DNA of 64,000 nt from the IMG/VR virus record IMGVR_UViG_3300025707_000484. One strand, written 5' to 3'. The position numbers and the translations under genes were made by a program. Source of the stretch: a virus. Lineage: Duplodnaviria > Caudoviricetes. The notes below the pieces were generated by a model. The model did no database searches, was not told where the DNA came from, and worked only from the letters and a program-made list of their open reading frames with translations. Positions within the stretch are counted from its first letter, which is position 1. Each line of letters starts with the position of its first letter. Positions 243 to 12,018 of this stretch are shown piece after piece.

Positions 243-824
243 TTGCTTCCTATATTGAATAATTTTTTTATAGACCCTGACATTTGCTTTGATGTAAGTA
301 AATTACAGGATGCATTGCGTAAGGTTGACTCACGAGTCGCAAGACAATCTCCTCTTGGCAAGAGAGATATCAATGCTATTTGTCTAACACAAATTCCTGG
401 TGATCCAAACTCTATTACAGGCGGTAATATAAGAGGACTATTTTGGACACGCCCTGACAGCACAGGAAAAGAAGTCCAACGAGAAAATCCAATAGACGAA
501 TCTCAATATACTGAGTTTGTTAAACTATTTGAAGATACTTACTTTAAAGAAGTGTATGACACACTTATTCCCAAGTATAATTTGGGCAGGGTAAGACTAC
601 TTTGGAAAATGCCACGCACAACATTGAGTTGGCACAGAGATCCTGAACGCAGATTACATATACCTATTATAACTAACCCAGGCGCACTAATGATTATTGA
701 TGATGAAGTGAAACATATGCCCGCAGATGGCAAAGTATGGGTTACTGACAACACAAAGTATCATAATGCGTTTAATGGCGGGGAAGTGGATCGTGTTCAT
801 TTGGTGGCGACAGTTATAGAATGA
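243..824 (+). CDS. Aspartyl/asparaginyl beta-hydroxylase-like 2OG-Fe(II) oxygenase
   Basis: HxD motif (SWHRD), RLHIPI, distal H and R (HNAFNGGEVDRVHLV). Confidence 0.8.
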   Translation: MLPILNNFFIDPDICFDVSKLQDALRKVDSRVARQSPLGKRDINAICLTQIPGDPNSITGGNIRGLFWTRPDSTGKEVQRENPIDESQYTEFVKLFEDTYFKEVYDTLIPKYNLGRVRLLWKMPRTTLSWHRDPERRLHIPIITNPGALMIIDDEVKHMPADGKVWVTDNTKYHNAFNGGEVDRVHLVATVIE

Positions 825-850
825 AAAAGGGCCCGAAGGCCCTTTTAAAA
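825..850. terminator. Bidirectional intrinsic terminator
   Basis: AAAAGGGCC-CGAA-GGCCCTTTT hairpin between convergent transcription units. Confidence 0.85.
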
Positions 851-1029
851 AAGCAATTGGGTAACAAGGCGTGCTTTACGCCCCGGAATACGAGCCGTAT
901 TATGCGGCTAAAGCGTACTCGAAATAGCTGTCATTTGCAGTTATTTTAATTTGCTGTTTTTTAACATGGAACTGCTCCCATGTGTCGTCAGTATATCGTC
1001 CTCACCCTGTCGAAGCCAATGTCACCCCC
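850..1029 (-). ncRNA. ssrA: Two-piece tmRNA, coding piece (tag (A)ANDSYFEYALAA at 900-938)
   Basis: Starts GGGGGTGACATTGGCTTCGACAGG; resume context ATAACT-GCAAATGAC; tag ends YALAA-stop; 3' boundary approximate. Confidence 0.92.
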
Positions 1030-1030
1030 G

Positions 1031-1174
1031 TCAAAAAAAGATTAAGTATATAATACCACCAATAATAATAATGTCGGCACAGATACTCCATGCGACATAT
1101 ATTTTAAACATATATTCTATAAATTTCCTTGCAGGTCTAGGTAATGTTTTTATTTTGTTCCGGAGGAATCGCAT
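1031..1174 (-). CDS. 47-aa membrane peptide encoded in the tmRNA intervening segment
   Basis: AGGAGG 8 nt before ATG; MRFLRNKIKTLPRPARKFIEYMFKIYVAWSICADIIIIGGIIYLIFF; basic N-terminus and C-terminal hydrophobic helix. Confidence 0.7.
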   Translation of the reverse strand: MRFLRNKIKTLPRPARKFIEYMFKIYVAWSICADIIIIGGIIYLIFF

Positions 1175-1218
1175 CGTTGCTTCCTCCTACATTATTATTG
1201 ATCATTTTAATCTCCTTT

Positions 1219-1282
1219 TGGTGGAGGTGGCGGGGATCGAACCCGCGTCCAGAATGCATATTGTCTACATCATACGACAATA
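1219..1282 (-). ncRNA. ssrA: Two-piece tmRNA, acceptor piece
   Basis: GGACGCGGGTTCGATCCCCGCCACCTCCACCA (T-arm, 3' acceptor strand, CCA); pairs with GGGGGTG including G3:U70; CATTCTG and TGTCGT pair with CAGGGTG and ACGACA of the coding piece; 5' boundary approximate. Confidence 0.92.
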
Positions 1283-1284
1283 AG

Positions 1285-1455
1285 TTACTTACTTATTTTC
1301 TTTTCTTCATATAAAACATGTTTGCGTACAACTGGGTCATACTTTTTTAATTTAAGTTTATCTATACTTTTTCGCTTATTGATAGTTGTAGTATAATAAT
1401 GCCCAGTGCCAGCAGTTGATACTAATTTAATAATTGTAACATTTTTACTTGCCAT
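1285..1455 (-). CDS. rpmG: Ribosomal protein bL33 (Cys-free type), 56 aa, not in the ORF track
   Basis: [56 protein letters not shown] has the L33 signatures IKLVS-AGTGH-YTT and [11 protein letters not shown]. Confidence 0.95.
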
Positions 1456-4279: not shown

Positions 4280-5344
4280 ATGAACGATAAAAAGTTTTTT
4301 TGTATAGAACCATATGTAGGTTTATCAATAATTGTTCCCGACCATGCATTTTGCTGTTGTTTACATGAAGGGGAAAAAATAACCAATACTGAAAATATTT
4401 GGCAAGATCCATACTTACTAGATATTAGAAATAAATTTACAAATAATATAATACCTGAAGAATGTAAGCCGTGTGTTGAGCAAGAGAAACACACTGATGG
4501 GCGTTCTAGCAGACGTTTAGACTCTAATAAAAATTGGGAAAACCATGTAGGGAAATTTGAAGATTATCTTGATAATGACGCTCCTTATAAATTAGATTTT
4601 TGGACTGGAAATATTTGTAATCTAGCATGTGCTACTTGTGCGGCTGATGATAGTTCTCTTTGGGGCACATTACAAAAGAGAAAACCCAACACTACAGTCT
4701 TTCATCGAGGCAGAAACCCCAATGATTTTGTATACAAAAAAGAAAATGTGCCAAATATAAATTATAAAAATTTACGCACAATACATTTTAATGGTGGTGA
4801 ACCATTTCTTACTAACGCACATTTAAAAGTTTTAGATCGAATACCTGAACATCAACGAGCAAATGTACACGTACAATATAATACAAATGGTACAGTACCA
4901 ATAGATATTAATGATGAAAAATATCAAATTTTTAAACAATTTTTATCAGTAGATTTATGCTATAGTTTAGATGGTATAAACGAAACTTTTGAATATACTC
5001 GTTGGCCGGCAAAATGGGATGAGGTAAGAAATAATATAGACTTTTGGGTTGATCAATTACATACTAGCAATAATGAATCATGGCATTTAGAAATAAGCTT
5101 TAATATAGTAAAATCAGTGTATAATTATGATAAAATAGATGAAACTATAAACTATATTGATAACAGATGGTGTGTTCCTATTAACGAAAAGAGAAAAGAT
5201 CATCCAGAATATCATCCTATACCAATACACCTAACTAATGATCACGCTATGCTAGATTATACAGATGAAGATTTTGCAAATTATAAACTAACAAGTAGAT
5301 ATAATAGTGAAATAACACAAATAAGAAATTTTAGAAAACGATAA
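4280..5344 (+). CDS. Radical SAM protein (Twitch/SPASM-like)
   Basis: CNLACATC, GGEPF and YNTNGT motifs; Cys-rich N-terminus; start uncertain. Confidence 0.85.
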   Translation: MNDKKFFCIEPYVGLSIIVPDHAFCCCLHEGEKITNTENIWQDPYLLDIRNKFTNNIIPEECKPCVEQEKHTDGRSSRRLDSNKNWENHVGKFEDYLDNDAPYKLDFWTGNICNLACATCAADDSSLWGTLQKRKPNTTVFHRGRNPNDFVYKKENVPNINYKNLRTIHFNGGEPFLTNAHLKVLDRIPEHQRANVHVQYNTNGTVPIDINDEKYQIFKQFLSVDLCYSLDGINETFEYTRWPAKWDEVRNNIDFWVDQLHTSNNESWHLEISFNIVKSVYNYDKIDETINYIDNRWCVPINEKRKDHPEYHPIPIHLTNDHAMLDYTDEDFANYKLTSRYNSEITQIRNFRKR

Positions 5345-5840: not shown

Positions 5841-5900
5841 TTTAAGTTCCTCCTTATGTAAAGCGAGTATTTGCATAATAGATCCCTTACGGCAATCTAT
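5841..5900 (-). promoter_or_regulatory. ROSE-like RNA thermometer of hsp20
   Basis: CTCGCTT-TACAT-AAGGAG hairpin sequesters the SD, with an upstream hairpin. Confidence 0.7.
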
Positions 5901-7780
5901 TTTGCGTTCTCAAATTCTGCATCAACAACATCCTCAGGAGTACTGCTGTTTTCCTGTGGCTGTTCTTCTTGATACATTTGCTCAGCAATTTTGTGACTTG
6001 CTTCCATCATTACATTAGTTTTACTTGTAATGTTTTCAGTATTATCACCTTTAACTGCTTCTTCTACATCTGTAACTGCTGTTTCAACTTCATACCGCAC
6101 AGTTGAATCAACTTTGTCACCTGCTTCTTCCAAAGTTTTCTGGACTGCATGAACCATTGCTTCTGCAGTGTTCCGTGCATCAACAAGTTCGCGCATTTTC
6201 TTGTCTTCGTCAGCATGTGTTTCAGCATCAAGTATTGCTTGCTGAACTTCTGCGTCAGATAAACCAGACCCTGCTTTAATTACGATCTTGTTTTCCTTAC
6301 CAGTTGCTTTGTCTTTAGCAGACACATTAAGTATACCATTAGCATCAATGTCAAAGGACACTTCAACTTGTGGCATACCTCTTGGTGCTGGTGGAATACC
6401 AGTTAAATCAAACCTACCTAATGACTTATTACCACTAGCCATTTCTCGTTCACCTTGTAACACGTGAACTGTTACAGCAGTTTGATTATTCTCCGCAGTA
6501 GAGAACACCTGGCTCGCACTAGTTGGAATTGTAGCATTTTTGTCTACTAATTTTGTCATTACGCCACCCAACGTCTCTATACCTAGAGACAAAGGCGTAA
6601 CATCTAACAACAAAACATCCTTTACTGTGCCGCCGAGCACACCGCCCTGAATAGCTGCACCTACTGCTACTGCTTCATCAGGATTAACATCTTTACGTGG
6701 CTCTTTTCCAAAGAACTTGGAAACTGTTTCTTGAACTTTAGGCATACGAGTCTGCCCGCCAACAAAAATAACTTCATCAATTTCTGAAGTTGAGAGTCCT
6801 GCATCTTTAAGTGCTACCTTACACGGCTCAATAGTCTTTTTAACAAGATCATCAACTAGAGATTCTAGTTTTGCGCGAGTAAGTTTAAGCGTCAAATGCT
6901 TTGGACCACTTTGGTCAGCAGTCAAGTATGGCAGATTAACATCCGTCTGCTTGTTTGTGGACAATTCAATCTTCGTTTTTTCTGCCGCTTCCTTAATGCG
7001 TTGCATAGCAAGGGCATCACCACGTAGATCCATGCCTTGTTCTTTTTCAAAAACATCAGCAAGATGGTCCATTATGCGACGGTCAAAGTCCTCACCGCCT
7101 AAGAACGTATCACCATTTGTTGCTAATACTTCAAATTGATGTTCACCATCAACGTCTGCAACTTCAATAACTGATACATCAAACGTACCACCACCCAGAT
7201 CATATACAATAATCTTCTGGTCGCCTCTTTGCTTGTCTAAACCATACGCAAGAGCGGCCGCCGTGGGTTCATTAATAATACGTTTAACATCTAAGCCAGC
7301 AATTTTCCCTGCGTCCTTTGTTGCTTGACGCTGAGAATCATTAAAATATGCTGGAACTGTAATAACGGCTTCAGTAACTGGACAACCTAAGTAGTCCTCC
7401 GCAGTCTTTTTCATCTTCTGTAAGATGCGAGCACACATTTCTTGTGGTGCTACTGTTTTACCGTTTACTTCAACCCAAGCATCACCATTGTCTGCCTTAA
7501 CAATCTTATACGGCATTAAATCCAAGTCGCGTTGAACGACATCTTCATCAAACTTCCGTCCAATAAGACGTTTTAATGCAAACAGGGTGTTGTGTGGGTT
7601 TGTTACCGCCTGTCGTTTTGCTGATTGACCAACAACAACTTCATCGTTATCAGTAAACGCAACTATACTAGGGGTAGTTCTGTCGCCTTCGTTGTTTTCA
7701 ATGACTTTTGCGATACCACCGTCTATAACGGCGACACACGAATTCGTGGTACCTAAGTCAATACCTATGATAGTGCTCAT
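5897..7780 (-). CDS. dnaK: Chaperone DnaK (Hsp70)
   Basis: [26 protein letters not shown] and C-terminal VVDAEFE. Confidence 0.98.
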
Positions 7781-7871
7781 ATATTTCTCCTTATATTAAG
7801 CGAGTAAGTTTATGAGCCTCACAATTAAGCACTCATATACATATTATAGCACTATTGCTATGATATGTCAA
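7781..7871 (-). promoter_or_regulatory. Consensus sigma70 promoter plus ROSE-like leader of dnaK
   Basis: TTGACA (7871-7866), 17-nt spacer, TATAAT (7848-7843); CTCGCTT-AATAT-AAGGAG at 7804-7787. Confidence 0.8.
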
Positions 7872-7898
7872 TGTATTTATGTGTGTAAATACTTGATT

Positions 7899-8225
7899 TT
7901 AATATTTTCTTTGTTTATGTATTGAATTTTCAGCAACTTCTTTAAGATGTCGCTTGCGAGCAATTGCTCTGGCTCGCTTTCTTACAATACTAGGTCTTTC
8001 ATAATGTTCACGAGCCTTTAGCTCTTGTAGTTTACCAGAGTTAGCAATTTTCTTTTTAAATTTGCGTAGAGCCTTATCTACTTCGCCATTTTGTACCCAA
8101 ACCTTAAGTCCAGAAACTCTTACTGGGCTAACTTTGTAATCTATTGGTTTTCTAAAATCTTTTGTATACTTCTTATCTTTATCGTTTTTCCAAACGGTAT
8201 TTCTATTATTCCATTCCCGTGCCAT
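7899..8225 (-). CDS. rpsU: Ribosomal protein bS21 with N-terminal extension
   Basis: V.V..GEVDKALRKFKKK...ELKAREHYERPS..RKR. Confidence 0.9.
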   Translation of the reverse strand: MAREWNNRNTVWKNDKDKKYTKDFRKPIDYKVSPVRVSGLKVWVQNGEVDKALRKFKKKIANSGKLQELKAREHYERPSIVRKRARAIARKRHLKEVAENSIHKQRKY

Positions 8226-10483: not shown

Positions 10484-10512
10484 TTGACAAAATACTAAGT
10501 TTCGTTTATAAT
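10484..10512 (+). promoter_or_regulatory. Consensus sigma70 promoter
   Basis: TTGACA-17 nt-TATAAT upstream of AGGAG and ATG 10547. Confidence 0.8.
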
Positions 10513-10546: not shown

Positions 10547-10899
10547 ATGGTCACAATGATTGGCAATGTTTTTCGTCTATGGTTAGGTAATAAGTTAATC
10601 GATTCGGTAAGTGATTACAATGATTCATATATGCGCTGGGCAAAAACAGAGTATAAGAATGATTGGCAATATCATTACTACCGCCTAATTGAAGAAGATA
10701 AAATCGCTAGACAAAGACGAGGCAAAGGCACACAGAAGAATCTAAACGCAAAATGCATGAAGCAAAAGTGGGTAAGCCTACTTGGAATAAAGGTATTCCA
10801 GCGACAGAAGAACGCAAACGAAACATTAGTTTAGCAATGAAAAGAGCGGCGGCTGCAAGGGCAGGGGTCGAACCTGCAATGTCCGGAGACACCCAATAA
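10547..10899 (+). pseudogene. Hypothetical gene with a NUMOD3-like C-terminus in the -1 frame (frameshifted)
   Basis: ORF 10547-10834; the alternative frame from 10729 reads HTEESKRKMHEAKVGKPTWNKGIPATEERKRNIS and ends at TAA 10899. Confidence 0.55.
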
Positions 10900-10935
10900 A
10901 CGGTTGGGTCTGTATACCAGTTCCAGCACCTTGCA
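10851..10935 (-). tRNA. Non-canonical tRNA with GUU anticodon (Asn-like) and long variable arm
   Basis: TGCAAGG/CCTTGCA acceptor stem, G73; D-arm CTG-GAACTGGTATA-CAG; CCCAA-CCGTTTA-TTGGG; variable arm GTC-TCCG-GAC; GCAGG-TTCGACC-CCTGC. Confidence 0.85.
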
Positions 10936-10959
10936 TCTGTCCGCTTTTCACATACCAAA

Positions 10960-11817
10960 TTATCTATGCATATTTGCTACAATACCACGTACCTTATACT
11001 GTTCCATCGCGTGAATAAACCGCGTCATACCAATGCCTCCACCTACTCTTGGCACAAAGTCCAATGCTAGGAAGTCATCTAGTTCTTTTATTACACGCTC
11101 TTTACCAAATGTTCCAAATAGTAAATCTGCATACATACCATCACTAATTGTATGAAACATTTCTCGCATCTCAAACGGGTCACTACTACGCTCTGCTGAG
11201 CCAATAGTTTCCATTCCTGCTATAATAACATCTATTTTTGCGGCTGTTCCGTCACCATTTTGCTTCATGTTCCAAAATGGACTTGTGTAATTTGGGAAGT
11301 TTTTAATCATGCAAACTCTACCTTGCCAATTACGGCACATTGCTTCTTCGTGTTCATGCTCGAGTTCATCAACACCAAAATCTTCGCACCATGCAAGATA
11401 ATCCTTTGCAACAACTCCGCCCTTAGAACACCAACCTAAGTATTCCATAAGTTCCTTTTCCATAGTTTCTAAATCATCAATGTTACCTGGCATTTCAAAT
11501 TCAAACATTGGGAAAATTAAATCATGTCTACCTTGTACTATATTTGGTTCTTGTCTATAGGATGTTGAAACACAAAAAAACCCCGGAACGTGGGGTTTAG
11601 TGAGCAATTCGAATTCCAACCACATTTGGCCTGTTTGTGGGAGTGGCCATACTTCTCCGGCGTAATTATAAGTTGCTACTGTAGTAGGGTCTTCGCATGC
11701 CGCCAATATGCTTAACCTGTTTTGCGTATGCACCTCTTCAAAACCTTTAGCCATAAAAAAGGACCTTAAAAGGCCCGTGGCTTCAGTGAACTGTTGAGGA
11801 TTTATTAATTGCGTCAT
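10960..11817 (-). CDS. Class IIb aaRS-like catalytic domain (AsnRS/AspRS paralog) lacking the anticodon-binding domain
   Basis: Motif 2 (SYRQE...RHDLIFPMFEFE), ETIGSAER, motif 3 (PRVGGGIGMTR); only 285 aa. Confidence 0.85.
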   Translation of the reverse strand: MTQLINPQQFTEATGLLRSFFMAKGFEEVHTQNRLSILAACEDPTTVATYNYAGEVWPLPQTGQMWLEFELLTKPHVPGFFCVSTSYRQEPNIVQGRHDLIFPMFEFEMPGNIDDLETMEKELMEYLGWCSKGGVVAKDYLAWCEDFGVDELEHEHEEAMCRNWQGRVCMIKNFPNYTSPFWNMKQNGDGTAAKIDVIIAGMETIGSAERSSDPFEMREMFHTISDGMYADLLFGTFGKERVIKELDDFLALDFVPRVGGGIGMTRFIHAMEQYKVRGIVANMHR

Positions 11818-11877
11818 TCTGTCATTCTCCAGTCAAATTTTTTTAGACGCTCGTCTGGCCGTCTAAACTGTTTTTAT

Positions 11878-12018
11878 TTATACCTTTTCTTCTTTTTCTT
11901 GATTCTTTTGTTCTTCCTCTTGTCTTTTCTGTTCTTCTATTACTTCTTCTTTTAATACATCTAAATTTATATAATTCTTTAAGGTGAATATACCTTTAAT
12001 TTTTTCTTTAATAGTCAT
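11878..12018 (-). CDS. 46-aa charged peptide, not in the ORF track
   Basis: MTIKEKIKGIFTLKNYINLDVLKEEVIEEQKRQEEEQKNQEKEEKV; TAAATA 5 nt upstream. Confidence 0.5.
   Translation of the reverse strand: MTIKEKIKGIFTLKNYINLDVLKEEVIEEQKRQEEEQKNQEKEEKV

Follow-up and report, generated by a model that had tools for sequence, protein, structure and literature searches.

The question raised by this locus is what a small protein with the catalytic core of an asparaginyl-tRNA synthetase (AsnRS) does when its gene lies directly in front of an aberrant tRNA(GUU). The window, as the whole 64-kb stretch of DNA analysed is called here, comes from a large T4-like phage genome with genes for DnaK, bS21, a DnaB-like helicase and a B12-type ribonucleotide reductase as well as a permuted tmRNA; the phage DnaK shares about 68% identity with the DnaK of gammaproteobacteria. 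The positions of the features are collected in Table 1. The functional claims made for the enzyme and the tRNA are based throughout on comparative genomics.

Table 1. Features of the window that are referred to in the text, with their positions and strands.
Feature	Position	Strand	Remarks
Class IIb (AsnRS-type) catalytic core without anticodon domain, 285 aa	10960..11817	-	PF00152; PHROG 29758; proposed dihydroorotate-forming enzyme
Spacer between enzyme stop and tRNA, 24 nt	10936..10959	-	No terminator-like site
T4-type late promoter motif TATAAATA	11875..11882	-	57 nt upstream of ATG; sequence motif, putative
Leader	11827..11867	-	8-bp inverted repeat (11842-11867), then GGAG ribosome-binding site (11827-11830)
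Insert of about 380 bp abutting tRNA C75	10471..10850	+	Perfect sigma70 promoter (10484-10512), 95-aa ORF, frameshifted NUMOD3 frame; absent in syntenic relatives
Type II tRNA(GUU)	10850..10935	-	ARAGORN tRNA-Asn(GTT) at 10851-10935; U1:A72, G73 (10853), ends CCG
Anticodon of the tRNA	10901-10899	-	GUU; C33, U37
Variable arm of the tRNA, 14 nt	10891-10878	-	4-bp stem
Permuted two-piece tmRNA	822-1329	-	Rfam RF04321 and RF01850; tag ANDSYFEYALAA; phage-encoded
DnaK adjoining ribosomal protein bS21	5897-8225	-	Phage-encoded

The class IIb catalytic core

The initial annotation had described a class IIb synthetase core without an anticodon domain, encoded 24 nt before the tRNA, and the analysis of the protein agreed with this description. 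PF00152 was the sole domain match of the 285-aa protein (E 3e-14), and because it takes up residues 11-273, no space is left at the N-terminus for an OB-fold anticodon-binding domain, which is absent; the phage enzyme therefore cannot read an anticodon. The protein also matched PHROG 29758, a family of unknown function (E 4e-117). The scores against the curated HMMs were 26 bits for AsnRS, 20.7 bits for the archaeal asparagine synthetase AS-AR (PRK06462) and 12.2 bits for EpmA/GenX, compared with cut-offs of 342.6, 389 and 286.9 bits, respectively, and the cut-off of the AspRS HMM was likewise far above the score of the protein. The search of the PDB with the single sequence gave no match. The structure predicted with AlphaFold (pLDDT 89) was closest to the catalytic domains of AsnRS (Z 27.7, rmsd 2.5 Å over 250 residues), followed by AS-AR (3p8t, Z 24.0) and EpmA (Z 23.3).

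The comparison with the catalytic domains of AsnRS (human 8TC8, Brugia 2XTI, P. horikoshii 1X54 and T. thermophilus 9SH8) showed a common class II fold, in which the motif 2 and motif 3 arginines, the ATP/Mg residues, the residues for the alpha-amine and the pair for the Asn side chain (a Glu after motif 2 and an Arg in the Gly-rich strand) are all present in the phage enzyme. Residues E106, R210, E42, T62 and Q64 align with the AsnRS sequences L330, L332 and L333 and with the Brugia AsnRS. By equivalence with AsnRS, we take E42, T62 and Q64 to hold the amine, E106 and R210 the side-chain amide, and R88, E90, H98, F102, D196, E203 and R266 to bind ATP, while L67 presumably stands at the position where AspRS uses Lys. 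However, the enzyme is about 20% identical to AsnRS and has lost, in addition to the anticodon domain, the proline of motif 1 and, in motif 2, the glutamate preceding the stacking aromatic; in cells it occurs alongside a full AsnRS. A set of 88 positions is common to 155 tRNA-linked and 26 cellular proteins of the family. It includes the AsnRS-equivalent residues E42, T62, Q64, R88, H98, F102, E106, D196, E203, R210 and R266 as well as K194, S207 and R257, which are invariants new with respect to AsnRS and could bind CO2 or carbamate.

The search of 90% clusters gave at least 8000 candidate homologues. In the longer relatives, the core is fused to PyrD, PyrF or a GIY-YIG domain, except for one in which no second family is named. 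In one of them (P0130), the core lies in one frame with a GIY-YIG/NUMOD3 endonuclease, which suggests that homing elements have repeatedly targeted the enzyme locus.

The type II tRNA and its place behind the enzyme gene

The tRNA of the window has a D arm with a 3-bp stem and a Leu-like loop, and it does not reach the Rfam gathering score for tRNA. The full cloverleaf of the initial annotation, with its U1:A72, G73, GUU anticodon, Leu-like D-loop and variable stem, was recovered in all its parts. The possibility of a degenerate tRNA, named there among the grounds for refutation, was rejected because of the strong covariation across 40 homologous tRNAs: 97.4% of the cells pair and compensatory changes occur in 21 of the 24 pairs, a result reached by 0 of 500 shuffled controls, while slid controls gave 43-54%.

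Family tRNAs were detected with a regex parser and a covariance model, the latter alone finding four of the elements. All 133 distinct family tRNAs have G34, U35 and G73 together with acceptor and T stems of 7 and 5 bp, and all except one have U1:A72. At position 36, 130 of them have U and the other three C. In the type II D arm, the D-loop has an additional base after U20; this base is A and not U. A purine at position 37 was found in only 18/133 family tRNAs and U33 in 103/133, compared with 91/91 for both among the neighbouring canonical tRNAs of the same loci. The non-purine 37 reported for the window tRNA is thus a trait of the family, whereas C33, also correctly read there, is a minority state (13/133). 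The same goes for the CCG end, which is real in the window but not a family feature, as 124 of the 133 tRNAs encode CCA; the window tRNA ends in CCG because the insert begins directly after C75. Both CCG and C33 were therefore rejected as features of the family.

The promoter of the insert is directed antisense into the tRNA and the enzyme gene, and the frameshifted NUMOD3 frame overlaps the 95-aa ORF and extends into the tRNA. Judging from these elements, the insert appears to be a homing-endonuclease-like remnant lying outside the conserved system. A syntenic relative without the tRNA (L042:3831-4260) carries another short sequence in its place between the same flanking genes.

The length of the variable region varies between 6 and 39 nt among the family tRNAs, with hardly any of it left in some; those at L058, L135 and L169 have a variable region of only 6 nt and retain U37 as well as the type II D arm. 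Three family tRNAs located just after the gene (L018, L024 and L030) have a GUC (Asp) anticodon combined with U1:A72 and variable regions of 27 nt, so that Asp codons would be misread if these tRNAs were amidated and used. The family shares GUU, G73, U1:A72 and the 7/5 acceptor and T stems with the bacterial tRNA-Asn of the ND-AspRS/GatCAB route, from which it differs by the type II D arm, a variable arm of up to 39 nt, pyrimidine 37, the variable position 33 and the extra D-loop base. Allo-tRNAs are unusual tRNAs of bacteria and phages with long variable arms and 8/4 or 9/3 stems (Mukai et al., PMC5389517). Unlike them, the family tRNAs have neither an extended acceptor stem nor a shortened T stem, their Asx anticodon is fixed, and an enzyme gene is linked to them.

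The co-occurrence of gene and tRNA across phages, proposed in the initial annotation as a check, was confirmed. Among the loci with enough flanking sequence, a family tRNA lies directly 3' of the enzyme gene at 132/155 loci from viruses and 64/76 from metagenomes, and at 66/87 loci after near-copies were collapsed, while the genes flanking the pair vary between loci. The spacing between stop codon and tRNA is 4-11 nt in most relatives, compared with 24 nt in the window, and the two are likely to be co-transcribed. The late promoter motif was present at 70 of 176 enzyme loci, which is a raw count without a shuffle control. Both cultured Prochlorococcus phages P-SSM2 and P-SSM7 carry the pair; their "tRNA ligases" PSSM2_198 and PSSM7_129, which belong to the same family (PHROG 29758, 61-62% identity), are followed by the same tRNA. 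No functional description was found for these two proteins or for the PHROG, "tRNA ligase" being a database label. In P-SSM2 (L117), tRNA-Asn is annotated at 6825-6910, about 2 kb downstream of the true site at 4814-4902, and the sequence under this annotation is no tRNA.

The phage enzymes form one supported clade in a quickly built tree with a very long outgroup branch, on which no direction of transfer is claimed. Phage copies without the tRNA are scattered across this tree, and the tRNA label requires at least 7-8 changes. At L081:3858-3890 the tRNA has been deleted precisely, leaving its two acceptor strands, and at L127:4844-4919 it is truncated; in both cases the enzyme gene is intact. 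An intact enzyme gene is also present in G230 and G386, two complete genomes in which no family tRNA was found anywhere. Judging by these loci, the enzyme does not depend on the tRNA.

These observations bear on the proposal of the initial annotation that enzyme and tRNA form an orthogonal pair read through the acceptor and variable arms. Such an enzyme would charge its own tRNA with Asn by means of the acceptor end and the overall shape, for translation or for another use. The tight adjacency amid varying neighbours, the single clade of phage proteins and the intact Asn and ATP pockets in a fold closest to AsnRS all agree with this, and the type II shape could conceal the tRNA from host synthetases. 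However, the active site is identical in tRNA-less cellular and PyrD-fused relatives, and an invariant anticodon has no reader on the enzyme. The protein is strongly acidic (net charge -18) with and without a linked tRNA, and the sequence comparison with tRNA-less copies revealed no basic residues specific to the tRNA-linked ones. The repeated changes of the tRNA label and the two complete genomes without it speak against a pair as well. The variable arm as the handle of the enzyme was rejected on account of the members with a 6-nt variable region. The proposal is poorly supported on these grounds; we regard it as unlikely, and the enzyme is probably not an orthogonal synthetase. If it were one, it would form with its tRNA a natural pair of unusually small size.

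A second explanation separates the two partners, assuming a pyrimidine enzyme (see below) and, on the same transcript, a host-charged translational tRNA-Asn whose loop resists anticodon nucleases. According to one proposal, phage tRNAs with altered anticodon loops escape cleavage by nucleases such as colicin E5 (PMC10264068), and the retention of GUU, G73 and CCA, as well as the persistence of the enzyme without the tRNA, would suit such an arrangement. It leaves unexplained, however, the constant position behind one gene and not in tRNA clusters, the GUC members, the arms of up to 39 nt, and the fact that no other tRNA at these loci loses purine 37, all of which make it improbable.

Association with the pyrimidine pathway

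The cellular relatives are 52-61% identical to the window protein (one of them 45%), and no family tRNA was found in their loci. At ten cellular loci, the enzyme gene adjoins pyrD and/or pyrE-pyrF. Moreover, in seven proteins, which share 54-57% identity with the window protein, the annotation includes PyrD as well as the core, and in an eighth it includes PyrF; the active-site set is kept in all of them. One of the PyrD fusions (L353:4249-6033, from the set P0121-P0128) is encoded on a giant-virus-like contig among TBP-like, eIF4E and thymidine-kinase genes.

The genomes carrying the enzyme keep pyrD (24/29), pyrF (29/31) and AsnRS (27/31), and they rarely have the early pyrimidine genes pyrB (2/31), carB (4/29) and pyrC (2/29). 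In two family samples, pyrB was present in 101/108 and 69/88 of the non-carrier relatives, compared with 0/3 carriers in each (Fisher p 5e-4 and 0.013, with kinship ignored), and carB and pyrC were present in all of the non-carriers tested. The carrier genomes are MAGs, incomplete and drawn from a small number of lineages; these MAGs do contain the late pyr genes, and incompleteness by itself is therefore unlikely to account for the missing early genes. Two genomes (G013 and G021) have the enzyme together with a normal pyrimidine pathway. The pyrC-like sub-cut-off hits of three Saprospiraceae-type carriers are not the PyrC of Bacteroidota, scoring 219-234 bits compared with 641-676 bits in non-carriers. 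The idea that the enzyme replaces only PyrC was also rejected, because pyrB and carB are absent too. A search for PyrR or a riboswitch near the cellular copies gave no match.

In phages the link is loose. Blocks of pyrD, enzyme, tRNA and a mini-PRTase gene in this order occur at four loci (L282, L283, L241 and L250), the enzyme gene of G386 abuts pyrD, and the enzyme was found within 8 kb at 12 of 45 phage pyrD loci, in a test biased by its query. P-SSM2 and P-SSM7 encode pyrE. A PRTase-like family of about 130 aa, with weak PyrE similarity and no Pfam match, is often located near the enzyme (L241:3935-4324 and 12 other phage loci). Most enzyme loci have no pyr gene within 3-4 kb, and no pyrD, pyrE or pyrF was found within the 64 kb of the window. 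The link to pyrD/E/F and the exclusion of carB, pyrB and pyrC thus appear to hold for the relatives of 52-61% identity and not for the window itself.

The putative active-site residues are identical in tRNA-linked, tRNA-less, cellular and fused copies, and one reaction for all of them is therefore the simplest reading. Since close relatives appear to replace the first three pyrimidine enzymes, the phage enzyme probably makes a nucleotide precursor from asparagine. A role at the entry of the pyrimidine pathway is, in our judgement, very probable, and Asn as the substrate is the favoured choice with a lower degree of confidence.

At two Patescibacteria-type loci, the gene directly follows a gatA-like amidase gene (L087:1431-2867) or precedes a canonical tRNA-Asn by 204 nt (L116:4057-4131), a possible sign that the enzyme is connected with Asn-tRNA in cells as well. 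Free-standing class IIb cores of similar size with non-translational functions are known in AS-AR (3P8T, PRK06462), AsnA and EpmA/GenX. Taking the enzyme for a tRNA-independent asparagine synthetase like AS-AR, which would serve as a source of Asn from Asp, NH3 and ATP, would fit the equal architecture and size, the fold match to 3p8t and the copy behind gatA. However, the enzyme is far under the cut-offs for AS-AR and EpmA and closer in fold to AsnRS, and it is associated with pyrimidine genes as well as, in phages, with a tRNA. Asn synthesis would explain neither the PyrD and PyrF fusions nor the loss of three pyrimidine enzymes, and we consider this reading very unlikely. The search for AS-AR sequences in the Patescibacteria sample gave no match, with the control genomes also unmatched.

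A proposed route from asparagine to dihydroorotate

According to the model that we prefer, the enzyme would hand dihydroorotate (DHO) to PyrD, in place of carbamoyl-phosphate synthetase, ATCase and dihydroorotase. Asn and ATP would be bound as in AsnRS and give Asn-AMP; CO2 would join the alpha-amine and an N-carboxyanhydride would close (or, alternatively, a carbamoyl-adenylate would form, with the same product); finally, the side-chain amide would attack the carbamate carbonyl of the ring, yielding DHO (Asn + CO2 - H2O). Aminoacyl adenylates and activated amino-acid esters form N-carboxyanhydrides at present ocean CO2 levels (PMC4262824). The amide nitrogen is a weak nucleophile, which counts against the proposed chemistry. 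The pathway position upstream of PyrD, deduced from operons, fusions and mutual exclusion, would equal that of CarAB, PyrB and PyrC, but the enzyme is a single 285-aa protein of unrelated fold, and a carbamoyl phosphate step is not expected.

The genomic data fix the position in the pathway and not the substrate, so that a pyrimidine entry enzyme with another substrate has to be weighed, e.g., one using Asp and a carbamoyl donor such as citrulline, with a tRNA that carries Asp or regulates. G34, U35 and G73 are also determinants of Asp, the GUC members exist, and the extra D-loop base may block amidation. Nevertheless, the pocket is AsnRS-like (E106, R210 and a Leu instead of Lys at position 67), U1:A72 is almost invariant, and no partner enzyme recurs beside the gene. 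This alternative seems to us quite unlikely.

In the preferred model, the tRNA would be a dedicated carrier of Asn that the host charges, by ND-AspRS and GatCAB or by AsnRS, and that its altered anticodon loop excludes from the ribosome. The retained Asx identity together with the mostly lost purine 37 would fit such a host-charged, non-ribosomal carrier. The determinants for Asx and the amidotransferase are G34, U35, G73 and U1:A72, the last of which is present in 132/133 family tRNAs, while U20a is an antideterminant of GatCAB (PMC9976931). The carrier would serve hosts in which Asn arises solely on tRNA, and the Asn would be delivered either as the activated ester or once it has been released; AsnRS is absent from many bacteria, and some bacteria form Asn exclusively in this way (PMC7373986). 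The gain for the phage would be a pyrimidine flux free of host feedback control. A non-ribosomal aminoacyl donor had been one of the suggestions of the initial annotation; it is now the preferred role of the tRNA, and the conserved linkage of the pair is consistent with it. Against the carrier model, the extra D-loop base (A) may block amidation by GatCAB. AspRS approaches tRNA from the side of the variable arm, and a long arm could hinder charging. Moreover, the late promoter motif suits nucleotide supply less well. Taken as a whole, a DHO-forming enzyme with a host-charged Asn-carrier tRNA stands, in our view, marginally on the favourable side of even.

By the features compared, the enzyme and the tRNA seem to lie outside AsnRS, AS-AR, EpmA, canonical tRNA-Asn and allo-tRNAs, and the enzyme would resemble, by analogy, other synthetase cores reused in metabolism. 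Neither the enzyme family nor a type II tRNA-Asn nor a route from Asn to DHO was found described in the literature searched, which covers few subscription papers. To our knowledge, the route through carbamoyl-phosphate synthetase, ATCase and dihydroorotase is regarded as the sole way into de novo pyrimidines. We give an even chance to the broader proposal that the one-step formation of DHO from Asn and CO2 is a second such entry across bacteria, giant viruses and marine phages, fed in phages by a ribosome-excluded tRNA. If this is true, one small protein in place of three enzymes would explain apparent pyrimidine auxotrophs with only pyrD/E/F, and an abundant viral metabolic gene, to judge from the number of candidate homologues, would at present carry the wrong label of a tRNA synthetase. 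A tRNA could then also act as a substrate carrier for nucleotide synthesis, with the translation enzymes of the host supplying a nucleotide precursor to the phage.
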